IMG/VR virus record: IMGVR_UViG_2512047041_000005
Span: 1 to 51,583 of that record
DNA: 51,583 nucleotides
Reading direction: 5' to 3' (one strand)
DNA from: a virus
Taxonomy: Duplodnaviria > Heunggongvirae > Uroviricota > Caudoviricetes
The translations under genes were made by a program, and so were the position numbers. Positions within the stretch are counted from its first letter, which is position 1; each line of letters starts with the position of its first letter. Below the pieces are notes generated by a model. It saw nothing but the letters and a program-made list of their open reading frames with translations. It made no database searches and was not told where the DNA came from. This document shows positions 5,224 through 50,287 of the stretch, in pieces.

Positions 5224-5356
5224 TTTTTGGGACTCCTGGCTGATTGAGTATGTCGATAAGGCGTTTCCATCCGTCACGTAATTTACGGGTGATTCGTTCA
5301 AGTAAAGATTCGGAAGGGCAGCCAGCAACAGGCCACCCTGCAATGGCATATTGCAT
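5192..5356 (-). CDS. cIII: cIII (FtsH inhibitor)
   Basis: 54-codon ORF below the track's 60-aa cut-off: [54 protein letters not shown], overlapping kil start as in lambda. Confidence 0.7.
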   Translation of the reverse strand: MQYAIAGWPVAGCPSESLLERITRKLRDGWKRLIDILNQPGVPKNGSNNYGYPD

Positions 5357-5428
5357 GGTGTGCTCCTTATTTATACATAACGAAAAACGCCTCGAGTGAA
5401 GCGTAATTGGTATGCGGTAACGCCGCGC

Positions 5429-5917: not shown

Positions 5918-6244
5918 ATGACTAAAAATACTCGTTTTTCCCCCGAAGTCCGTCAACGGGCAGTCCGTATGGTTCTGGAAAGTCAGAGCGAATATGACTC
6001 ACAATGGGCGACAATTTGTTCCATTGCTCCAAAGATTGGCTGTACGCCGGAGACTCTGCGTGTCTGGGTTCGCCAGCATGAGCGGGATACCGGGGGCGGT
6101 GATGGAGGGCTCACCACCGCTGAACGTCAGCGTCTGAAAGAGCTGGAACGTGAAAATCGTGAACTGCGCCGCAGTAACGATATCCTTCGCCAGGCTTCCG
6201 CTTATTTTGCGAAGGCGGAGTTCGACCGCCTCTGGAAAAAATGA
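5918..6244 (+). CDS. IS629 transposase OrfA
   Basis: 108 aa HTH/leucine-zipper OrfA ([50 protein letters not shown]...). Confidence 0.9.
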
Positions 6245-7131
6245 TGCCACTGCTGGATAAGCTGCGTGAGCAGTACGGGGTCGGACCGCTATGCAGCGAA
6301 CTGCATATTGCCCCGTCAACGTATTACCACTGTCAGCAACAGCGACATCATCCGGATAAACGCAGTGCCCGTGCGCAGCGCGATGACTGGCTGAAGAAAG
6401 AGATACAGCGCGTATACGATGAAAATCACAAGGTATACGGTGTGCGTAAAGTCTGGCGTCAGTTGTTACGGGAAGGTATCAGAGTGGCCAGATGCACTGT
6501 GGCACGTCTCATGGCGGTTATGGGACTTGCCGGTGTTCTCCGGGGTAAAAAGGTCCGTACGACCATCAGCCGGAAAGCCGTTGCCGCAGGCGACCGCGTA
6601 AACCGTCAGTTCGTGGCAGAACGACCTGACCAGCTGTGGGTGGCTGATTTTACTTACGTCAGCACATGGCGGGGCTTCGTCTATGTGGCGTTCATCATTG
6701 ATGTGTTTGCCGGATACATCGTGGGGTGGCGGGTCTCATCGTCCATGGAAACGACATTCGTGCTGGATGCACTGGAGCAGGCGTTATGGGCCCGTCGACC
6801 GTCCGGCACGGTCCATCACAGTGATAAAGGTTCTCAGTATGTATCGCTGGCCTACACACAGCGGCTTAAGGAAGCCGGATTACTGGCATCAACAGGAAGT
6901 ACAGGCGACTCGTATGACAACGCGATGGCGGAGAGCATCAATGGTCTTTACAAAGCGGAGGTAATACACCGTAAGAGCTGGAAAAACCGTGCAGAAGTGG
7001 AACTGGCCACACTCACGTGGGTGGACTGGTATAACAATCGACGATTGCTGGAAAGGCTGGGCCATACTCCTCCGGCAGAAGCAGAAAAAGCTTATTATGC
7101 TTCCATCGGAAACGATGATCTGGCAGCCTGA
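6241..7131 (+). CDS. IS629 transposase OrfB (DDE catalytic domain)
   Basis: 296 aa rve-type integrase core; overlaps orfA as in IS3-family frameshift pairs. Confidence 0.9.
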
Positions 7132-37453: not shown

Positions 37454-37911
37454 CTTCTCTTGGTATTTTTGTTCATTATTCCACCTGTTCCTATGGTTAC
37501 GTTACCTTTGATAACATTCCCCAGAACATCTCCATGAATAACCTGTTCCGCCCGTTCTCTGGAGGAGCCAGTAGTCAAGGCCGACAAAACTGAACCTTTG
37601 ACCTGTAATGGTGCCTGCCGGTAGTGCTGCAGTAACTCCATTTCATCACGTGATAAAGTTATACCTGATGACTCCCCGGTAAGAATGAACTGTACATTGG
37701 CCCCAATTCTTGCAAAGGCTGCAAGTAACTCACCTCCGGGAACAGCAACCCCTCGTTCATATTTCCCCCACATTTCTCTTGAAACGCCACAAAGGGCTGC
37801 TACTTCAGCCTGCTTGAGTGATAACCGCGAACGCTCAGCTTTGAACCGCGACGCGCAAAGAGAATCAAAATTCACATAAACCTCATTGACAATGAGAACA
37901 ATAGTTCTCAT
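37450..37911 (-). CDS. Prophage repressor, HTH_XRE family
   Basis: 153 aa with HTH (LSLKQAEVAALCGVSREMWGKYERG); divergent from the ner-like gene across a 50-bp gap. Confidence 0.7.
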   Translation of the reverse strand: MRTIVLIVNEVYVNFDSLCASRFKAERSRLSLKQAEVAALCGVSREMWGKYERGVAVPGGELLAAFARIGANVQFILTGESSGITLSRDEMELLQHYRQAPLQVKGSVLSALTTGSSRERAEQVIHGDVLGNVIKGNVTIGTGGIMNKNTKRR

Positions 37912-37961
37912 AATCTATCACATATAAAACAAACATCATTGCATCAACAAAGGAGACAACA
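37912..37961. promoter_or_regulatory. Divergent promoter/operator region
   Basis: 50-bp AT-rich intergenic region between divergent regulators; ner-like gene has AAGGAG Shine-Dalgarno. Confidence 0.4.
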
Positions 37962-39439: not shown

Positions 39440-41209
39440 ATGAATGCTGCCCTGACTGAACGACTGGTTTATGTCGCCCGCGCGGCACGTGACGCGGGGC
39501 ATGGTAAACGCGGTGCAATATACGACGCTGCCTGTGCTGAACTTGGCATGTCCCGCGCCACTCTGCTGCGCAGGCTGAAGGAGGTCTCTGTGACTGATAA
39601 ACGCAAAAAACGCGCTGATGCCGGACGCAGCGCCCTGACCCGCGACGAAGCCGCGCTGATATCTGCCACACTGCGTGAGGCCACCCGCAAGAACGGTAAA
39701 CGCCTCTATTCCATCGCAGATGCAGTGGAAACCCTGCGGGCTAACGGCTTTATCACCGCAGGCAGAACAGATGAAACCACCGGTGAGTTTTTCCCGTTGT
39801 CTGAAGATGCCATCAGCCGTGCTCTGCGTAACTATGGCCTGCACCCGGAACAACTGGATGCTCCTGCACCGCATACCGAAGTGGCCAGTCTGCACCCCAA
39901 TCATGTCTGGCAGATTGACGCCTCACTCTGCACGCTTTACTACCTGAGCAATGGACATAAAGGGCTGCAGGTGATGGACAGCGCGAAGTTCTACAAGAAC
40001 AAGCCCGCTAACCTTGCCCGTATCGCCAGTGACCGCGTGTGGAGTTACGAGATTACCGACCATGCCAGCGGCTGGATTTACGTTGAGTATGTGACGGGCG
40101 CGGAATCAGGTGAGAACCTGTGTTCTGTGCTTATCAACGCCATGCAGGAGCGTGGCGGCGCAGACGTGCTGCACGGCGTGCCAAAAATACTCTATCTCGA
40201 CCCCGGCTCGGCAAACACCGCGGGTATGACGAAAAACATGTGCCGCTCACTGGGCATCGACCTGATAGCGCACAAGCCGCATAACGCCCGCGCCACCGGA
40301 CAGGTGGAAAAGGCGCGGGACATTATCGAACGCAAGCTGGAGCCGGGTCTGAAGTTCCGGCCGGTTCACAGTCTGGAAGAACTCAATGCGCTGGCCGCGA
40401 AATGGCGCAGCCACTTTAACGCCACGGCTGTTCACAGCCGCCACGGTAAAACCCGCACGGATATCTGGCTGAAGATTACTGCTGAGCAGCTGAAAAAAGC
40501 GCCTTCCGTTGAGGTATGTCGTGAACTGGCTGTGGCGGCACCAGAACTCCGCAAAGTCACGCCAAAACTTCGTGTCTCGTTCCGGGGCACTGAATTTGAC
40601 GTATCAACGGTACCGGGCGTACTGGTCGGTGAAAAACTGATGATTACCCGTAACCCGTGGCGCAGCGATGTGGCACAGGTGGTTCTGACCGGTGAGGACG
40701 GCCACGAGACGTTCTTCCTGGTCGAAGAAGTCAGAAAGAACGAGTTTGGCTTTGCTGAAGGCGCGGCGGTATTTGGCGAAAGTTACAAAGCCCTGCCGGA
40801 AACCCCGGCGCAGATGGCGGCAAAAGAAACCGAAGCGCTGGTCACCGGTACAGACAACGCCGCAGATGCAGCTGCCGCACGCAAGGCGAAGGCGCTGCCG
40901 TTCGGCGGGCGGCTTGACCCGTATAAACATATTGATGACGCCACACTTCCGGCCTATATGCCGAAGCGAGGTCAGGCCTCTGACGTACGCGGGTCGCGCA
41001 CTGAACAACGTCCCATGACTCATGTGGAGGCCGCGAAAGCCCTGCGCGATAAGTTCAGCGCCGACGGCCTTACCTGGACGCCGGAACATTACCGCCAGTT
41101 AACGGCACAGTATCCGGACGGCGTACCGGAAGCCGCACTGGATGAAGTCATGGCCACGCTGACCACGCCGGCCCGCAGCAGCGTTATCAGCATTGTTAAC
41201 GGCAACTGA
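39440..41209 (+). CDS. DDE transposase (rve-type core, not MuA-like)
   Basis: 589 aa, rve-like core (HPNHVWQIDASL...DPGSANTAGM...HNARATGQVEKA); followed by overlapping B-like ATPase. Confidence 0.8.
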   Translation: MNAALTERLVYVARAARDAGHGKRGAIYDAACAELGMSRATLLRRLKEVSVTDKRKKRADAGRSALTRDEAALISATLREATRKNGKRLYSIADAVETLRANGFITAGRTDETTGEFFPLSEDAISRALRNYGLHPEQLDAPAPHTEVASLHPNHVWQIDASLCTLYYLSNGHKGLQVMDSAKFYKNKPANLARIASDRVWSYEITDHASGWIYVEYVTGAESGENLCSVLINAMQERGGADVLHGVPKILYLDPGSANTAGMTKNMCRSLGIDLIAHKPHNARATGQVEKARDIIERKLEPGLKFRPVHSLEELNALAAKWRSHFNATAVHSRHGKTRTDIWLKITAEQLKKAPSVEVCRELAVAAPELRKVTPKLRVSFRGTEFDVSTVPGVLVGEKLMITRNPWRSDVAQVVLTGEDGHETFFLVEEVRKNEFGFAEGAAVFGESYKALPETPAQMAAKETEALVTGTDNAADAAAARKAKALPFGGRLDPYKHIDDATLPAYMPKRGQASDVRGSRTEQRPMTHVEAAKALRDKFSADGLTWTPEHYRQLTAQYPDGVPEAALDEVMATLTTPARSSVISIVNGN

Positions 41210-42386
41210 GGAGGGATACATGCTGGTACTGAAGCAGCAACTGAAAGAGGCCCGTATTCCACAGGCGGTGGTGGCGAGAGCTGTCGATGTTTCTGAGGCC
41301 ACGCTGGCCCAGATTGTGAATCATAACGCGTGGCCCCGCACCAGCCCCGGAGAAGTGCGCCGGCGTCTTGCGTCCTGGCTGGAAAGTCAGGGGATTGATA
41401 CAACGAAGAGTTTTGATGCTGTACAGGGCGCGGCCACGCCCCGTACAGCGGGTACCACAGATAAAACGAGCCTCAGTGAGGAAGAGAATATGTTACTCAA
41501 AAAACAGGTGTTATTTCCAGCAACCAAAAAAGCGTTTGGTCTTTTCCGTGACCCGTTCGCCGACGAAGCCATGCAGGGTTCTGATGATGTGTTCACCACT
41601 CCGGACATTCGCTACGTGCGTGAGGCGCTGTACCAGACAGCCCGTCATGGTGGGTTTATGGCCGTCATCGGTGAGTCCGGTGCGGGTAAATCCACGCTGC
41701 GCCGTGACCTGACTGAACGTATCAACCGCGAGAATGCGCCGGTGATTGTTATCGAGCCATACATCATCGCTATGGAAGACAACGATGTGAAAGGGAAAAC
41801 CCTGAAGGCAGCAGCGATTGCCGAAGCCATTATCAGTACCATCGCACCACTGGAAAGCATCAGACGCAGTCAGGACGCCCGCTTTCGCCAGCTGCATCGC
41901 GTCCTGAAAGACAGCAGCCAGGCGGGGTTCAGCCACGTTCTGGTGATTGAGGAGGCCCACAGTCTGCCCATTCCGACACTGAAACACCTCAAACGCTTTT
42001 TTGAGCTGGAGTCCGGTTTCAAAAAACTGCTGTCCATCGTGCTGATTGGCCAGCCGGAACTGGCGACAAAACTGTCTGAACGCAATATGGAAGTCCGTGA
42101 AGTCGTTCAGCGCTGTGAGGTGGTCGAACTTCTGCCTCTGGACAATAACCTTGAAGAGTTTCTGACGTTCAAACTGCAACGGGCCGGTAAACAACTGACG
42201 GACATTATGGACGCCAGCGCAGTGGATGCCATACGTGCCCGCCTGAGCAATCCGGGAAGTCATCGTAAAAATATGGTCAGCCTGCTGTATCCGCTGGTCG
42301 TCAGTAACCTGGTAATAGCCGCCATGAATCTGGCCGCTGAAATCGGGGTTCCACAGGTCAACGCTGACGTTGTCAAAGGGGTTTAA
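41193..42386 (+). CDS. Transposition ATPase (MuB/TniB-like AAA+)
   Basis: Walker A GESGAGKST, Walker B VLVIEEAH. Confidence 0.8.
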   Translation: MLTATEEGYMLVLKQQLKEARIPQAVVARAVDVSEATLAQIVNHNAWPRTSPGEVRRRLASWLESQGIDTTKSFDAVQGAATPRTAGTTDKTSLSEEENMLLKKQVLFPATKKAFGLFRDPFADEAMQGSDDVFTTPDIRYVREALYQTARHGGFMAVIGESGAGKSTLRRDLTERINRENAPVIVIEPYIIAMEDNDVKGKTLKAAAIAEAIISTIAPLESIRRSQDARFRQLHRVLKDSSQAGFSHVLVIEEAHSLPIPTLKHLKRFFELESGFKKLLSIVLIGQPELATKLSERNMEVREVVQRCEVVELLPLDNNLEEFLTFKLQRAGKQLTDIMDASAVDAIRARLSNPGSHRKNMVSLLYPLVVSNLVIAAMNLAAEIGVPQVNADVVKGV

Positions 42387-42388
42387 TA

Positions 42389-42658
42389 ATGAAATCCACC
42401 ACAGGTATCAACCAGCAAATCAGCAAAGTGCAGTCAGCCATTATGGCGCTTAAGGCGACGAACACGGATGTACAAAGCATCACCATCAGGGGTAACAAAC
42501 CTGTCATCCGCGTTTCCCGGAGTGCGCATTGCATGCGCATGCTTGAGCAGGGAAAGGCCTGTTATCTGTATACCGGACATGACCACAGGGGATATTTCCG
42601 TCAGGGCGTTTTCGAACTGCACGGCTGTCGCGTCGTGTGGCCGGAATCTTTGTGGTAA
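42389..42658 (+). CDS. Hypothetical early protein
   Basis: 89-aa ORF starting 3 nt after the B-like gene. Confidence 0.45.
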   Translation: MKSTTGINQQISKVQSAIMALKATNTDVQSITIRGNKPVIRVSRSAHCMRMLEQGKACYLYTGHDHRGYFRQGVFELHGCRVVWPESLW

Positions 42659-42685
42659 TCAGCACAACTGGAGAAATCATAAAAA

Positions 42686-43216
42686 ATGGCAAAAAGTACA
42701 AAAGGTGCAAAACGTATCAAGGCCGCAGCAGCACTCTGGGTGCCGGGGACACGTGAAGAGGTCATTGAGGGAATCAGACTACTCGGTGACGCACAACGTG
42801 AACTGGTCAGGGCTGAAACAGAAATGAATGACGCCATTGGCGATATCACCGCACGTTATGCCCCGCTCACCGAGAGCCTGAAAAAACGCATGGCCGAACT
42901 GCAGTCCGGTATTCAGACATGGTGTGAGGCACACCGTGATGAACTGACCGGCAACGGGAAGGTGAAGTTCGCTAACCTCACCACCGGCGAGGTGCAGTGG
43001 CGAAACCGTCCGCCATCAGTCAGTATCCGTGGGGCGGATAATGTTATTGAATTACTGAGACGTCTGGGGCTTGAGCGCTTTATTCGTGTAAAAGAGGAAA
43101 TAAATAAAGACGCTATCCTGAATGAAAAAGAGGCCGTGAAAAATATTCCCGGTATTTCCATTAAAAGCGACATTGAGGATTTTTCAATAATTCCTTTTGA
43201 GCAGGATGTGCAGTAA
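42686..43216 (+). CDS. Mu Gam-like host-nuclease inhibitor
   Basis: 176 aa; ...PPSVSIRGADNVIELLRRLGLERFIRVKEEINKDAIL...EDFSIIPFEQD closely matches Mu Gam as remembered. Confidence 0.85.
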   Translation: MAKSTKGAKRIKAAAALWVPGTREEVIEGIRLLGDAQRELVRAETEMNDAIGDITARYAPLTESLKKRMAELQSGIQTWCEAHRDELTGNGKVKFANLTTGEVQWRNRPPSVSIRGADNVIELLRRLGLERFIRVKEEINKDAILNEKEAVKNIPGISIKSDIEDFSIIPFEQDVQ

Positions 43217-43313
43217 ACACACCACGTTAATTATTTAATAAAAACATTTTCTTTTTTATTCCGGCGTCAGCGCCGCGGGCTTCTGCACGCCGGAAACAGA
43301 GGAGAATTAAATC

Positions 43314-43508
43314 ATGATATTTAAATGTATTCAGTGCGAGAGGGATATAACAGCCCTGCGTTTTCACAGCGCCATCGCCGTGATGTCCGGTAAATACCAC
43401 ATCCCTGCGGTACGCGTCACCCTGGTCTGCCCGTACTGCAGCCAGCATTTTTCGGCAGACGTGCCCGTCATGGAATTCTCCCGCCCTGACAGGGAGGACT
43501 CGCAATGA
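43314..43508 (+). CDS. Small zinc-ribbon protein
   Basis: 64 aa with two CxxC pairs. Confidence 0.45.
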   Translation: MIFKCIQCERDITALRFHSAIAVMSGKYHIPAVRVTLVCPYCSQHFSADVPVMEFSRPDREDSQ

Positions 43509-43777
43509 TTACCCCACAGGAAGCACGACAGCGCACCCGAACCCTTGTTGAACACTATGTCAACGAGTGTGAATGCCGCGACCTCACCGATGTGAAGCAC
43601 GTCCTGACCGCGCTAATCAGCATGACCGCTCAGGCCATTGTGGCGACCAACGGAAAGGCGGCTGCCCTGCAGGTACTGGTGAACACACTCACCCACACGG
43701 CAGAGCATGAGGTGCCGTACCGGATGGAAACCACTGCAGAAGGCGGCCTGCACATCACCGTCAGCCGGAAGCACTGA
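43505..43777 (+). CDS. Hypothetical early protein
   Basis: 90-aa ORF, ATGA-coupled to the previous gene. Confidence 0.45.
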   Translation: MITPQEARQRTRTLVEHYVNECECRDLTDVKHVLTALISMTAQAIVATNGKAAALQVLVNTLTHTAEHEVPYRMETTAEGGLHITVSRKH

Positions 43778-43786
43778 GGGCGCGGC

Positions 43787-44083
43787 ATGACACGGAACAC
43801 CATACTCACCCGCACCGCCCTCTACCGTCTGGCCCTGCAGCGTTTCGGGCCGGACGCACAGGCCCTGAAACTGACAGAAGAGGCCGCTGAACTGGCGGCC
43901 AGTGCTGCCCGCAATCTGAACGGACAGGGCAGCGAAAGTGACCTCGCGGCAGAGCTGGCAGACGTGGAAATCATGACAGAGCAATTGCGCCTTCAGGGGA
44001 TGGACCGGCTGATTGACTTCCACAAACAGAAAAAACTGGAACGTCTGGCTGCACGACTGGGCGTGATTTACACGAACGAGTAA
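43787..44083 (+). CDS. MazG-like nucleotide pyrophosphohydrolase (tentative)
   Basis: 98 aa with EEAAELA...AAELADVEIM acidic helix motifs typical of small MazG-family proteins. Confidence 0.45.
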   Translation: MTRNTILTRTALYRLALQRFGPDAQALKLTEEAAELAASAARNLNGQGSESDLAAELADVEIMTEQLRLQGMDRLIDFHKQKKLERLAARLGVIYTNE

Positions 44084-44097
44084 CCGGGAGGCATTCA

Positions 44098-44313
44098 ATG
44101 GCTGACATACTCAGGGAAATCACCGCATGGACACTGATTCTTACTGGCCTGGCGACATGCCTCAGTGCGGGGGCAGCCCTGGCTGCCCTGCTGATGCACA
44201 TAACAACACAGTGGTTATGGGAAAAGCTTAAAGCAGCATACAGCCTGAAAGAGCTGTCCGACGCTGTCCGGGCATGGAAACGGCAGAAAAATACCGGAGA
44301 TACAGAACAATGA
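44098..44313 (+). CDS. Small membrane protein
   Basis: 71 aa with one hydrophobic helix. Confidence 0.4.
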   Translation: MADILREITAWTLILTGLATCLSAGAALAALLMHITTQWLWEKLKAAYSLKELSDAVRAWKRQKNTGDTEQ

Positions 44314-44993
44314 CAGACCAGAATAAACACATTGAGAAACTGAAAAAGTTGCTGGCGCTGGCCGCATCCGGCAACCCGCACGAGGCCGCTCTGGCACTGC
44401 GCCGAGCCCGTAAACTGATGGATGTTCACGGCATCACACATTCCGACATTGCTATGAGTGATATTGATGAAACCATCAGTCATTACTGGCCGACAGGCAG
44501 TCTCCGTCCACCGCGCTACATGCTGGGCCTGATGAACATCATCCGCGAGGCATTTGGTGTTAACTCCATCATTCACCCCGGCACGCATCCGTCTGTGGGG
44601 TTCTACGGTAACCGGGAACGAGCGGCACTGGCTGCGTACACCTGGGAAGTGCTGGTCCGCCAACTGAAAAAGGCGCGTCAGCAGTATATCAGCGCACAGA
44701 ACAAAAGAATAAAAAACGCCACCCGTACCAGCCGTGGAAACCAGTTTGCTGAAGGCTGGGTACTGGCCGTTATCAGTGAAATACAGTCCTTTGCCCTGAC
44801 CGATGATGAGCGTGAACTGATGCAACAGTGGCTGGAACATAAATACCCGCAAACGCAAACCACCAGGGCGCGTAAACCGGGAAGAAGCCGCAATGGCGAC
44901 GCCTCGCGCTATGCGGGGTTTCGTGAAGGGCAGAACGTCAGACTGCACCGCCCGGTCAGTGGGCAGGAACAACAGAAACTGGAGGCCAGATGA
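44310..44993 (+). CDS. Hypothetical early protein (DUF2786-like, from memory)
   Basis: 227 aa from internal ATG overlapping previous stop; helical N-terminus HIEKLKKLLALAASGNPHEAALALRRARKLM. Confidence 0.55.
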   Translation: MTDQNKHIEKLKKLLALAASGNPHEAALALRRARKLMDVHGITHSDIAMSDIDETISHYWPTGSLRPPRYMLGLMNIIREAFGVNSIIHPGTHPSVGFYGNRERAALAAYTWEVLVRQLKKARQQYISAQNKRIKNATRTSRGNQFAEGWVLAVISEIQSFALTDDERELMQQWLEHKYPQTQTTRARKPGRSRNGDASRYAGFREGQNVRLHRPVSGQEQQKLEAR

Positions 44994-45101
44994 TTACGCT
45001 ATCAGGTAACAGCCGGAAATTAAAAGCCTGCCGAATATCTGCCAGATACCTTTTTGCCCGCGCCTTTTTTAAGAACGTCAGGCCGGGGATCACTGTAGTG
45101 G

Positions 45102-46352
<1,251 letters not shown>

Positions 46353-46470: not shown

Positions 46471-46686
46471 ATGACGGCTGAATCTGTTGTATGTGCCCTG
46501 TTCTGGTATTGTTTTGTCGGTTGGTGTACTGCTGAACTGCACCGCCGTTCAGGGTTTTATTCACGTTACAGTGGTGCCGGCTACTGGATTAGCTGGTCGG
46601 TGATGTTCCTGTGCTGGCCTGTGGCGCTTCCTTTATATGTCGATTATATCGGTGGCGCAGGTAAAAGGAGCAACGATGATGACTAA
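46471..46686 (+). CDS. Small membrane protein
   Basis: 71 aa, MTAESVVCALFWYCFVGWCTAEL...; upstream part of the track ORF lies inside the IS. Confidence 0.4.
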   Translation: MTAESVVCALFWYCFVGWCTAELHRRSGFYSRYSGAGYWISWSVMFLCWPVALPLYVDYIGGAGKRSNDDD

Positions 46687-47128
46687 ACAACGTCTTATCC
46701 AGCTCATTCATATTGCCCGTAATGAACTGGGTATGGATGAAGACACCTACCGCCAGATGTTACAGGGGCTGACCGGTAAAGCCTCAACCAAAGGAATGGA
46801 TACCACACAACTAAACTGCGTGCTGGAATCCATGAAAAGGAAAGGCTTTCGCGTTAAGCCTGCCGGAAAAGCCAGCTCCGGTTTACCGCTGGATAACCAT
46901 CCGCAGTCCAGGAAAATCCGTGCGCTATGGCTTGAAATGGCTGCTGCCGGCATTGTTCGTGACCGTTCAGAAAATGCATTAGCGCGGTGGATCAAGCGGG
47001 AAACGGGCATCAGCGCCCTGCGCTGGCTCAATACTGAACAGGCAAGCAGTGTTATTGAGAAACTGAAGAAGTGGCAGCACAGAGCTGCGGGAGTAAAACA
47101 TGAGCGACCTGAATCAGTTTCGAAGTAA
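46676..47128 (+). CDS. Mu GemA/gp16-like protein
   Basis: 150 aa from ATG overlapping previous stop; position before the mor-like gene. Confidence 0.65.
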   Translation: MMTKQRLIQLIHIARNELGMDEDTYRQMLQGLTGKASTKGMDTTQLNCVLESMKRKGFRVKPAGKASSGLPLDNHPQSRKIRALWLEMAAAGIVRDRSENALARWIKRETGISALRWLNTEQASSVIEKLKKWQHRAAGVKHERPESVSK

Positions 47129-47822: not shown

Positions 47823-47881
47823 ATTAGCCAGGTAACACAGTGTTATGACAGCCCGCCGGTTCAGGCGGGCTTTTTTGTGGA

Positions 47882-50287
47882 GTGGATATGGCAGCAGTAA
47901 AAATCTCAGGTGTGCTGAAAGATGGTGCGGGAAAACCAATACAGAACTGCACTATTCAACTGAAGGCAAAGCGTAACAGCACCACGGTACTGGTGAACAC
48001 GGTGGCCTCTGAAAATCCGGATGAAGCCGGGCGTTACAGCATGGATGTTGAGTATGGCCAGTACAGCGTTATCCTGCTTGTTGAAGGTTTTCCGCCTTCA
48101 CATGCCGGAACCATTACCGTCTATGAAGGTTCCAGACCAGGTACGCTGAATGATTTTCTCGGTGCCATGACGGAAGATGATGTCATGCCGGAGGCATTGC
48201 GTCGTTTTGAGGAAATGGTGGAAGAAGCGGCACGCAACGCCGAAGCCGCCTCTCAGAGCGCAGCGGCGGCAAAGAAATCCGAAACTGCAGCGGCATCATC
48301 GAAGAACGCGGCGAAAACCTCAGAAACGAATGCAGCTAATAGTGCACAGGCGGCAGCGACCTCACAGACTGCATCAGAAAACTCCGCGACAGCAGCCAAA
48401 AAATCAGAAACCAACGCGAAAAATAGCGAGACAGCCGCAAAGACGAGCGAAACCAACGCAAAGTCCAGCCAGACGGCAGCGAAGACCAGCGAAACGAATG
48501 CCAAAGCCAGTGAAACTGCGGCAAAAAACAGCCAGGTTGCAGCAGCCCAAAGCGAGAGCGCGGCAGCCGGTTCTGCGACTTCAGCAGCTGGATCAGCAAC
48601 TGCTGCGGCTAACAGCCAGAAAGCTGCGAAGACGAGTGAAACTAACGCAAAGTCCAGCCAGACGGCAGCGAAGACCAGCGAAACGAATGCCAAAACCAGC
48701 GAAACTGCGGCGAAAAACAGTCAGGATGCAGCAGCCCAAAGCGAGAGTGCTGCAGCTGGTTCTGCAAGCGCGGCGGCTGCTTCTGCCACTGCATCAGCCA
48801 ACAGTCAAACAGCAGCAAAAACCAGTGAAACCAATGCAAAGACAAGCGAGACTGCAGCGGCGAACTCGGCGAAAGCATCGGCAGCAAGCCAGACAGCAGC
48901 TAAAGCAAGTGAAGACGCAGCCAGAGAGTATGCAAGCCAGGCAGCAGAGCCGTATAAATATGTCTTACAGCCGTTGCCTGATGTGTGGATACCGTTTAAC
49001 GATTCACTGGATATGATTACGGGCTTTTCGCCGTCATATAAAAAAATTGTTATTGGTGATGATGAAATAACGATGCCTGGCGACAAGGTTGTTAAGTTTA
49101 AACGCGCATCAACTGCCACATATATCAATAAATCAGGCGTATTTAGTGTTGCTAAAATTGATGAACCACGATTTGAAAAAGAAGGTTTATTGATTGAAGG
49201 ACAGCGCACTAACTATTTTGTTAAATCCAATACTCCCGCTGAATGGACGAGTACCAGCAATATCGATAAAACTAATAATGGTGTTGATGAATTTGGTTTT
49301 TCATATGCCAAAATGCGAACAAAAGATAATATGACAGGACAATCATCTGCACTTAGTCTGCATACATGCAGTGCATCCCGGGGGATTGATGTTAGTGGCG
49401 ATAATAAGTATTGCACTGTTTCATGCAGGGTTAAAGCTCCTGATGGTCTTCGTTGTCGTTTGCGTTTTGAAAAATACGATGGGTCGGTTTATACATTTTT
49501 AGGAGATGCTTATTTAACTTTCGGAACTCTGATAATAGAAAAAACTGGCGGAGCAGCCAATAGAATAGCAGCTACTGCAACTAAAGATCCGGTTACAGGG
49601 TGGATTTTCTATGAGGCAACTATAGAAGCTGTTGAAGGTGAAACCTTAATTGGCGCAATGATTCAGTATGCGCCGAAAAAAGGTGGTATAACTGAAGCGG
49701 GAGATTATATTTACCTTGCAACACCACAATTTGAAAACGGCGGATGTGCTTCATCTTTTGTTATTACGACAACTGCACCCGCAACCCGCTCCAGTGATAT
49801 GGTGACGATCCCAACTGAAAATAATATCTATAATAGACCGCTTACGTGTCTTGTCGAGGTTAATAGAAATTGGGGCGATATTCCTCCTAATGTAGCACCG
49901 CGTATTTTTGATTTTTCTGGTGTGCCACCTATTGAGTCAATTACATACGCTTTTAACACAACTGAGAAATATTACGGTCAGCTTTATATGCAAACTTATA
50001 AAGCGTCGACAAGTACTTACGTTTCTAGTGTGTTTGCTGGTCGAACTGATGTTCGAAAATTCATTGGTGGTTTTAATATTTATTCTGATGGTACTAAACG
50101 AGTAGTTTCTAACGGTGAGGCTACTAAAACTATGAAAACGGAGTGGACGGGCGTAAAAACACGGACCTTTATTCGAATTGGAGGTCAAGCCACATCGGGA
50201 ACTCGTCATCTATTCGGCCATTTGAGAAATCTTCGTCTCTGGCATAAAGTATTAACTGATGCGCAAATGGGGGAGAGTATTAAATGA
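47882..50287 (+). CDS. stf: Side tail fibre protein with divergent C-terminal module
   Basis: N-terminal ~120 aa nearly identical to lambda Stf; long Ala/Ser/Thr/Lys-rich repeat region; C-terminal part unrelated to lambda Stf and AT-richer. Confidence 0.9.
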   Translation: MDMAAVKISGVLKDGAGKPIQNCTIQLKAKRNSTTVLVNTVASENPDEAGRYSMDVEYGQYSVILLVEGFPPSHAGTITVYEGSRPGTLNDFLGAMTEDDVMPEALRRFEEMVEEAARNAEAASQSAAAAKKSETAAASSKNAAKTSETNAANSAQAAATSQTASENSATAAKKSETNAKNSETAAKTSETNAKSSQTAAKTSETNAKASETAAKNSQVAAAQSESAAAGSATSAAGSATAAANSQKAAKTSETNAKSSQTAAKTSETNAKTSETAAKNSQDAAAQSESAAAGSASAAAASATASANSQTAAKTSETNAKTSETAAANSAKASAASQTAAKASEDAAREYASQAAEPYKYVLQPLPDVWIPFNDSLDMITGFSPSYKKIVIGDDEITMPGDKVVKFKRASTATYINKSGVFSVAKIDEPRFEKEGLLIEGQRTNYFVKSNTPAEWTSTSNIDKTNNGVDEFGFSYAKMRTKDNMTGQSSALSLHTCSASRGIDVSGDNKYCTVSCRVKAPDGLRCRLRFEKYDGSVYTFLGDAYLTFGTLIIEKTGGAANRIAATATKDPVTGWIFYEATIEAVEGETLIGAMIQYAPKKGGITEAGDYIYLATPQFENGGCASSFVITTTAPATRSSDMVTIPTENNIYNRPLTCLVEVNRNWGDIPPNVAPRIFDFSGVPPIESITYAFNTTEKYYGQLYMQTYKASTSTYVSSVFAGRTDVRKFIGGFNIYSDGTKRVVSNGEATKTMKTEWTGVKTRTFIRIGGQATSGTRHLFGHLRNLRLWHKVLTDAQMGESIK
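48459..48840. repeat. 189-bp tandem repeat (about 2 copies) in stf
   Basis: gcaaagtccagccagacggcagcgaagaccagcgaaacgaatgccaaa recurs 189 bp apart; in-frame 63-aa units. Confidence 0.6.

Follow-up and report, generated by a model that had tools for sequence, protein, structure and literature searches.

Mu-type Gam with predicted zinc-ribbon and MazG-like proteins in the early accessory region of a BcepMu-like prophage of Escherichia coli

The DNA considered here, a window of 51,583 nucleotides that corresponds to positions 1 to 51,583 of the IMG/VR virus record IMGVR_UViG_2512047041_000005, contains between positions 42389 and 44313 a run of small genes that lies directly downstream of the transposition gene B of a Mu-like element. 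In our interpretation a BcepMu-like (Bcepmuvirus) transposable prophage has its "semi-essential early" accessory region here, and the cluster, which forms the proximal part of that region, is the positional counterpart of the segment of phage Mu that extends from B to gemA and mor; to this explanation, taken as a whole, we assign a probability of roughly 0.6. It comprises a division of labor among the encoded proteins. Whether the genome is infecting or transposing, dimers of a Mu-type Gam would cap its double-strand ends and hold off RecBCD, and a protein of 98 amino acids (aa), called MazG98 here, would be an active, Mg-dependent, oligomeric all-alpha nucleoside-triphosphate pyrophosphohydrolase (NTP-PPase) that rids the host pool of a harmful or unwanted nucleotide during replication by transposition, its most likely substrates being a non-canonical deoxynucleoside triphosphate (dNTP) or an alarmone. 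A zinc-ribbon-like protein of 64 aa (Zn64), usually encoded immediately upstream of MazG98, would serve as its partner or adaptor, and two further small genes, orf90 and TM71, would be exchangeable cargo. A conserved hairpin ahead of Zn64 would delimit an operon sub-unit under translational or post-transcriptional regulation, and the genes of the cluster would be expressed only in lytic or transpositional growth, along with those of the transposase A and of B.

Six early genes of a common prophage

The window is E. coli chromosomal DNA and is 99.98-99.99% identical to strain IAI39 on each side of a 1258-bp insertion. The 2.6 kb between 42389 and 44993 are 98.8% identical to Escherichia phage PhiKM, which is classified in Bcepmuvirus, and, with an identity of at least 90% required, they recur in 620 of the 5426 complete E. 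coli genomes, their location being chromosomal every time. The segment from 37.9 to 47.9 kb constitutes an early operon on the plus strand, in which genes for small helix-turn-helix regulators and a DUF3102 protein are followed by A, B, the cluster, a DUF2786/DUF7168 gene and the gene of GemA. The order DUF3102, A, B, ..., Gam, ..., GemA, Mor recurs in related records, and in the near-identical records of IAI39 and TUM1586 Mor comes after GemA. The cluster is an ordinary early accessory region of a common prophage, and its main assignments are already in public annotation.

The first-pass annotation of this DNA had described a Gam-like, a zinc-ribbon and a MazG-like protein downstream of B, all tightly coupled. 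All three are encoded there, on the plus strand, within a series of six co-directional open reading frames (ORFs) that begins straight after B and also includes three ORFs which that annotation did not mention (orf89, orf90 and TM71, a membrane ORF of 71 aa). The tight coupling is real at most of the junctions, where genes overlap or are separated by 2-27 nt: orf89 starts 2 nt after the B stop and Gam 27 nt after orf89, the start of orf90 overlaps the stop of Zn64 (ATGA), MazG98 follows 9 nt later and TM71 another 14 nt after that, and the stop of TM71 overlaps the start of the DUF2786 gene. It does not extend to the junction of gam and Zn64, where a gap of 97 nt accommodates the conserved hairpin. 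Each of the six ORFs matches a PHROG family at E<=3e-34, and all six are under purifying selection, the pairwise ratios of nonsynonymous to synonymous substitution (dN/dS) being 0.03-0.11 for Gam, 0.09-0.14 for MazG98, 0.13-0.22 for Zn64, 0.16-0.49 for orf90 and ~0.3-0.4 for TM71. Since their orthologues are intact in 77 related loci and the dN/dS values are low, these are genuine genes and not chance ORFs. NCBIfam provided a usable name for none of the seven proteins searched.

The comparison with related elements was based on two sets of 80 IMG/VR loci, one fetched via MazG98 and the other via protein B, the second being unbiased toward the cluster; all counts of gene content refer to the 77 loci of the B-anchored set that have both B and GemA. 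There is little turnover of orf89 (76 of 77), MazG98 (68) and Zn64 (65), and the DUF2786 gene is found in 64 loci. Turnover is seen instead in the gene that fills the Gam slot (Gam in 38 loci, a DUF3164 protein in another 38), in orf90 (41) and in TM71 (24). MazG98 and Zn64 thus behave as conserved early genes and orf90 and TM71 as exchangeable cargo. In the loci without orf90, Zn64 abuts or overlaps MazG98, so that orf90 looks like an insertion into a Zn64-MazG98 pair.

The predicted pyrophosphohydrolase, its zinc-ribbon-like neighbor and the hairpin upstream

MazG98 (43787..44083, plus strand) is predicted to be a small all-alpha MazG-like NTP-PPase by its motif, its PHROG family, the profile of its wider family and its AlphaFold2 model. 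The acidic helix motif to which the earlier annotation had drawn attention is present as an intact metal motif, E31-E32-x-x-E35 ... E56-x-x-D59, and 14 close relatives retain its five acidic residues without change, whereas in 70 distant ones each is either invariant or conserved to 90% or more; E32, E35, E56 and D59 correspond to four acidic residues that we take to coordinate Mg in the DCTPP1-type enzymes. The protein matches PHROG 2245, "nucleoside triphosphate pyrophosphohydrolase", at 2.8e-34, and an identical protein in RefSeq bears the name "nucleoside triphosphate pyrophosphohydrolase family protein". When 1.84 billion representatives were searched with a profile, 10,837 clusters were returned at E<=1e-3, 2,143 of them at E<=1e-10, whose members are mostly of 90-110 aa. 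This wider family extends to phages of Clostridium, Fusobacterium, Vibrio, Cellulophaga and Bifidobacterium, and no characterised member was found in it. Among 70 sampled relatives, 20 match the Pfam MazG model PF03819 at E<=0.01, and others match MazG-like or PRA-PH models. The profile of this 70-member family finds MazG-type proteins in the PDB (5ie9 at E=0.0074, as well as 2q73, 2q5z, 2gta and 1vmg), in alignments that place EExxEL on EEmgEL and AEEIADV on EElGDV. Fold prediction gave an all-helical model (pLDDT, the predicted local distance difference test score, 79.9) with two long helices in a hairpin. In BFVD its top neighbors (E=1.7e-4, TM-score 0.73) are proteins of phages that bear the annotation NTP pyrophosphohydrolase, and at this level of predicted structures the MazG-like assignment has survived the examination. 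Several independent lines, drawn from sequence and from modeling, would place MazG98 in the all-alpha NTP pyrophosphohydrolase superfamily.

Some orthologues depart from this simple architecture. Those of loci L042, L043, L074 and L077 are ~170 aa long and carry, like P0012 and P0031 of the wider survey, a C-terminal extension of ~70 aa (...LLEDWCGAVPNSAFIGA...) that has no Pfam match; in P0066 and P0073 the MazG-like domain is duplicated in tandem.

The best indirect evidence on the activity of MazG98 comes from the loci in which a second pyrophosphatase is found. In L138 (8556-9047) and L140 (8556-9044) MazG98 is absent and a dATP/dGTP pyrophosphohydrolase of family PF04447 (5e-44) is encoded at its position, and in L049 and L069 (6263-6751 in both) the PF04447 enzyme comes directly after MazG98. 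We take PF04447 to be an all-alpha NTP-PPase of the MazG clan; that its members are detectable homologues of the MazG98 family was considered and rejected (hhalign E=0.3). The recurrence of a different nucleotide pyrophosphatase at the MazG98 spot suggests that an enzymatic activity is what selection keeps, and the dATP/dGTP type of the replacement leans toward the dNTP pool as its target, rather than toward alarmones or immune signals. The PF04447 enzyme has an extra N-terminal domain of ~60 aa, and combinations of this domain with other C-terminal parts occur in L143 and in a group of loci made up of L058, L061, L062, L063, L117 and L121.

Zn64 (43314..43508, plus strand) belongs to PHROG 3401 (1.6e-40) and has four cysteines in the arrangement CxxC...CPxC. 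Of these, C5, C8 and C42 are invariant, as is P40, and C39 is conserved to at least 90%, in 32 relatives down to 25% identity. The 51 relatives that a profile search brought up all come from Enterobacterales. The AlphaFold2 model is confident (mean pLDDT 88.2) and all-beta, its five strands covering residues 3-5, 10-12, 16-25, 30-38 and 45-51; a fold search with this model gave nothing significant, and the zinc ribbons of NrdR and ZPR1 were among the top matches (E 0.23-1.3). The zinc-ribbon identity proposed in the first-pass annotation is therefore supported by the predicted structure and the conserved cysteines, and the fold gives no function. In the GenBank record of PhiKM (10934-11155 of L002, equivalent to ~43227-43448 of the window) a minus-strand hypothetical ORF is annotated over Zn64. 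That ORF is probably an annotation error; the conservation of the cysteines, together with a low dN/dS, shows the plus-strand reading to be the correct one.

That Zn64 and MazG98 act together is put forward as a reasonable hypothesis only. In its favor, the two genes are adjacent in most of the loci without orf90. Moreover, of the 46 members of the wider MazG98 family that are extended by at least 35 aa, 10 have fused modules, at the N or the C terminus, with at least two CxxC-type motifs, and two further members have shorter N-terminal zinc knuckles; these fusions (P0067, P0075, P0120, P0127, P0141, P0153, P0167, P0170, P0181, P0186, P0187 and P0196) come from unrelated sources.

The 97-nt gap between gam and Zn64 contains a conserved GC-rich hairpin (43259..43295, plus strand), preceded by a T-run that begins at ~43246. 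Its predicted RNA fold has an energy of -29.5 kcal/mol (z=-4.3), and in an extended fold of the window's own sequence the T-run pairs with the Shine-Dalgarno sequence of Zn64 (43298-43307), which would thereby be sequestered. The core of the hairpin is near-invariant in 31 distinct variants, among which Zn64 is only ~50% identical and the upstream gene may be either gam or DUF3164. RNAalifold recovers 15 pairs, with one compensatory change (C:G to U:A) and several changes that are G-U-compatible. An intrinsic terminator was rejected, since the T-run is located 5' of the stem on the plus strand and would be an A-run if the minus strand were transcribed; a known RNA family was also rejected, there being no credible Rfam match, and a literature lead that concerned a small RNA and the Mu-like prophage Sp18 (PMC13502914) proved to be irrelevant. 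Possible roles for the hairpin are those of a translational gate, of an element in the processing or stability of the mRNA, or of a conserved recombination joint at a module boundary.

A number of observations weigh against the explanation that we prefer. MazG98 itself reaches no MazG model of Pfam or NCBIfam, its best match being PRA-PH at E=0.047, and neither phmmer nor a profile of its close relatives matched any PDB sequence. Foldseek matches to the PDB are non-significant (E>=0.34), although the list is headed by DCTPP1, HisE, Bacillus MazG, AF1178 and YpjD, and the monomer model is an extended hairpin, unlike the compact bundle of the solved MazG oligomers. The isolated phages with MazG98 homologues are only four, in which the protein is unannotated or "hypothetical", and none of them is from Pectobacterium. 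With respect to the partnership, Zn64 and MazG98 are found together no more often than chance would predict (58 loci have both, 7 only Zn64, 10 only MazG98 and 2 neither), so that a statistical association between them was rejected, and a Salmonella Mu-like prophage has a Zn64 relative without either MazG98 or a MazG neighbor. A genuine Zn64::MazG98 fusion was rejected as well: the two are in frame only in L045 (and in an odd cluster, P0036), and the case of L045 is likely to be an indel because the upstream extension elsewhere is the Zn64 gene in another frame. At the level of the operon, the promoter-like and terminator-like sites described below are consensus matches only, and an IS3-family copy interrupts the operon downstream of the cluster, for which reason the prophage may be functionally impaired in this copy.

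To these must be added the orthologues with an altered motif. In L080, L081 and L083 (6001-6306) both E56 and D59 have been lost, EKMAGIEIM standing for AELADVEIM, and the orthologue of L069 carries E56K; the ORFs remain intact in all four, which implies that catalysis is not always retained. One could accordingly suppose that MazG98 is a non-catalytic helical adaptor that binds a nucleotide or a protein, and that its acidic motif is an inherited and dispensable feature, a view to which the mere two-helix hairpin of the predicted monomer would also lend itself. We regard this as improbable. The motif is invariant in all the other relatives and at least 90% conserved across the 70 distant members, its variants are few and may belong to decaying prophages, and in L069 the neighboring PF04447 enzyme could compensate for the lost activity. 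A catalytic MazG98 thus remains the reading that we favor.

Gam, its alternation with DUF3164 and the question of counter-defence

Gam (42686..43216, plus strand) is of the Mu type, that is, a Ku-like binder of double-strand ends and an inhibitor of host nucleases. It matches the Pfam family Phage_Mu_Gam (PF07352) at E=9.9e-41 and with 139.6 bits, against a cut-off of 28.3, over profile positions 1-148 of 149; it matches PHROG 491, "Mu Gam-like end protection", at 5.5e-73; and its residues 35-147 match PDB 2p2u ("Host-nuclease inhibitor protein Gam, putative") at E=7.9e-8. On sequence grounds the family assignment is secure, and the Mu Gam-like identity proposed for this protein at the outset is confirmed. 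According to PMC12407980, which documents end protection for the family, Gam proteins of the Mu type form Ku-like dimers, which bind DNA ends and prevent RecBCD from loading; Gabija, in the same account, is licensed by GamMu and GemA to act against a Mu-like Pseudomonas phage. By analogy with its family, Gam would be the only member of the cluster with a documented anti-defence role.

In about half of the related loci the place of Gam is taken by another protein. The slot after orf89, which corresponds to 42686-43216 of the window, is occupied either by Gam or by a DUF3164 protein of 203 aa (PF11363, 3e-80; for example L045, 5110-5721), no locus of the 77 having both and only one having neither. 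The alternation is one between sub-lineages that the identity of B defines: Gam is found where B is at least 98% identical, both types at 91-94%, Gam again at 83-85% and DUF3164 at 81-83%. No sequence homology between the two proteins could be detected (hhalign E 0.43-0.87). DUF3164 has no relative in the PDB, its PHROG is unannotated, and the titles and opening parts of abstracts that were searched included no functional literature on it. From its position DUF3164 may be a functional substitute for Gam. The licensing of Gabija by GamMu and GemA offers, by our own reasoning, a plausible selective reason for such an alternation.

The first-pass annotation had gone further and had suggested possible anti-defence roles for the cluster. 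This stands for Gam, on the strength of family knowledge, and it found no support for MazG98 and Zn64, which match nothing in PADLOC (its defence models matched none of the seven proteins) and are retained rather than patchy; beyond Gam, the anti-defence reading is conjecture. There is nevertheless a precedent. Atd1, a phage MazG-like catalytic domain, hydrolyses ppGpp with an apparent Km of ~50 uM, protected cells from TIR-STING toxicity and rescued the plaquing of T5 on retron-TIR tenfold (preprint 10.1101/2022.06.09.495361); this preprint was the only anti-defence precedent found for phage MazG-like proteins. MazG-like domains also occur on the defence side, as predicted effectors (PMC12871103), which shows that nucleotide pyrophosphatases take part in the phage-host conflict. 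MazG98, possibly with Zn64, might by the same token be a counter-defence enzyme that either hydrolyses (p)ppGpp in the manner of Atd1, and so blunts abortive infection by TIR domains or toxins, or destroys an immune nucleotide, such as a chain-terminator nucleotide or a nucleotide second messenger. Its location near Gam, a known nuclease antagonist, and in a region with exchangeable cargo, would suit this alternative, which we consider possible while thinking the odds to be clearly against it. Unlike typical anti-defence genes, which are patchy, MazG98 is kept in 88% of the relatives and has a low dN/dS, and its replacement by a pyrophosphatase of the dATP/dGTP type points to the dNTP pool. 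The retention of both MazG98 and Zn64 across diverged relatives better fits a conserved early function than counter-defence cargo that is rapidly exchanged.

A more elaborate proposal would combine the two themes and make the post-orf89 slot an arms-race position and Zn64-MazG98 a counter-defence module. Gam and DUF3164 would then be interchangeable means of protection from RecBCD that have been repeatedly swapped because defences of the host, Gabija for instance, sense end binders of the Gam type, and the hairpin-gated Zn64-MazG98 pair would be a two-part nucleotide-directed counter-defence module, single-chain versions of which, with a zinc ribbon fused to the MazG-like domain, would be widespread in other phages. 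This joint scenario seems to us doubtful. For MazG98 the data are compatible alike with a role like that of Atd1, with sanitation of the dNTP pool in transpositional replication and with some other nucleotide target, the PF04447 replacement leaning toward dNTPs.

The surrounding operon and comparison with known systems

The early operon is preceded by an early-promoter-like site, TTGACA-17-CATAAT (37886..37914, plus strand), which agrees with the sigma-70-like consensus at 11 of 12 positions, lies ahead of the first early gene and is the top site in 37-48.5 kb; a consensus search found no other plus-strand promoter-like site between 37.9 and 47.5 kb. The transposase A, which is of the rve type, is encoded at 39440-41209 (plus strand), and the transposition protein B, an AAA+ ATPase of the ExeA family, at 41220..42386 (plus strand; Pfam AAA_22 3.7e-20; PHROG 296, "DNA transposition protein", 9.9e-94), the start of B being that of RefSeq. 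Three members of the cluster need only brief description. The first, orf89 (42389..42658, plus strand), is a small protein with the RefSeq name "HI_1482 family"; it matches PHROG 2041 (3.1e-36) and has no Pfam or PDB match. The small accessory protein orf90 (43505..43777, plus strand) matches PHROG 3691 (2.7e-55), and a PDB search with it was empty. TM71 (44098..44313, plus strand; PHROG 3958, 1.1e-41) has one hydrophobic helix and is a predicted single-pass membrane protein. Beyond the cluster, the DUF2786/DUF7168 protein (44310..44993, plus strand) matches PF23771 (2.1e-26) and PF10979 (4.8e-11), GemA (gp16; 46637..47128, plus strand; PF06252, 1.6e-40) is located near the distal end of the early accessory region, and downstream of gemA there is a terminator-like hairpin (47850..47871, plus strand) with an 8-bp stem of which 7 pairs are GC, followed by the T-run TTTTTTGTGG.

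This organization bears on a further alternative, in which the small genes would be morons that are expressed in the lysogen and guard the host from other phages by superinfection exclusion or defence. Temperate phages often carry such cargo, and TM71, a small and patchily distributed membrane protein, has the common form of an exclusion protein. The genes are, however, situated inside an early lytic operon, between B and gemA and on the same strand; stop codons overlap start codons, and the genes have no separate promoter-like site. This position argues against exclusion genes expressed in the lysogen, as does the failure of PADLOC to match any of the seven proteins. We therefore judge this alternative very improbable and retain that of an early accessory region which functions in lytic growth.

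The insertion mentioned above is a 1258-bp copy of the IS3 family (45094..46351, minus strand). It has a 3-bp target duplication, visible as a 3-bp overlap of the IAI39 alignments, and its transposase ORFs are on the minus strand. By comparison with IAI39 it has entered a small ORF between the DUF2786 gene and gemA, and it probably exerts polar effects on the early genes downstream. A minus-strand Rfam match to isrC (46161-46283) falls within this copy. Elsewhere in the window, Rfam matches that exceed the gathering score, at 5311-5369 (minus strand) to the lambda CIII thermoregulator and at 6199-6315 (plus strand) to the ALIL pseudoknot, a frameshift element of the IS3 type, indicate that there are other mobile-element remnants in its left part. 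Downstream of the Mu-like element two stretches of 249 bp (48422-48670 and 48611-48859), which overlap because the second starts only 189 bp after the first, share 83% identity; the repeat (48422-48859) sits in a gene whose annotation in IAI39 is "prophage tail fiber N-terminal domain-containing protein".

As it stands, the cluster matters little, for this type of prophage is common and the names of Gam and of the NTP-pyrophosphatase are already in RefSeq. The side results that merit attention are the mutual exclusivity of Gam and DUF3164, the recurrent pyrophosphatases, the fusion of zinc-ribbon modules to members of the wider family, and the hairpin with its conserved sequence. Should the clade of phage MazG-like proteins of ~100 aa, with its more than 10,000 representative clusters, prove to have a defined substrate that connects it with host immunity or with the faithfulness of replication by transposition, the cluster would gain in importance. 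If DUF3164 does stand in for Gam, this would be the first testable function for a DUF that is common in Mu-like phages, and would link it to the work on Gam and Gabija.

The semi-essential early region of Mu, which extends from B to gemA and mor and includes kil, gam and others, resembles the present region in being a run of small and mostly dispensable genes, here probably co-transcribed, in which homologues of Gam, GemA and Mor have the same order. The remaining genes, by contrast, were found to have no relation to Mu genes in the searches run, and we know of no MazG-like or Zn64-like gene in Mu. Gam itself shares with the Gam of Mu the full-length PF07352 match, the similarity to 2p2u and the location downstream of B in the early operon; it differs in that the element is BcepMu-like and not Mu, in that a single ORF, orf89, intervenes between B and gam, and in that it is known here from its sequence. 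The N-terminal zinc ribbon of NrdR, chains of which were among the top fold matches of Zn64, has two CxxC knuckles on beta hairpins, as Zn64 is predicted to have. These matches are non-significant (E 0.23-1.3), and Zn64 is a stand-alone protein with a long beta-hairpin insert between its knuckles which the searches run found only in Mu-like prophages of Enterobacterales.

Three comparisons concern MazG98. Atd1 of Pectobacterium phage PcCB7V (preprint 10.1101/2022.06.09.495361) is, like it, a small single-domain phage protein of the MazG type with acidic catalytic motifs, the likeness being one of description; their genomic contexts differ, Atd1 having been chosen for its proximity to NTase genes. 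PF04447 (formerly DUF550) shares the early-operon position of MazG98 in two loci and adjoins it in two others, but it has no detectable sequence similarity to the MazG98 family and possesses the extra N-terminal domain. With MazG (PF03819), DCTPP1/RS21-C6, YpjD and HisE (PRA-PH), finally, MazG98 appears to have in common the helical fold, the metal-binding motif EExxE ... ExxD and the profile matches at the level of the family. Where it differs from them is that it falls below the threshold of every curated model and belongs to a separate and very large clade, mostly of phage proteins of 90-110 aa.

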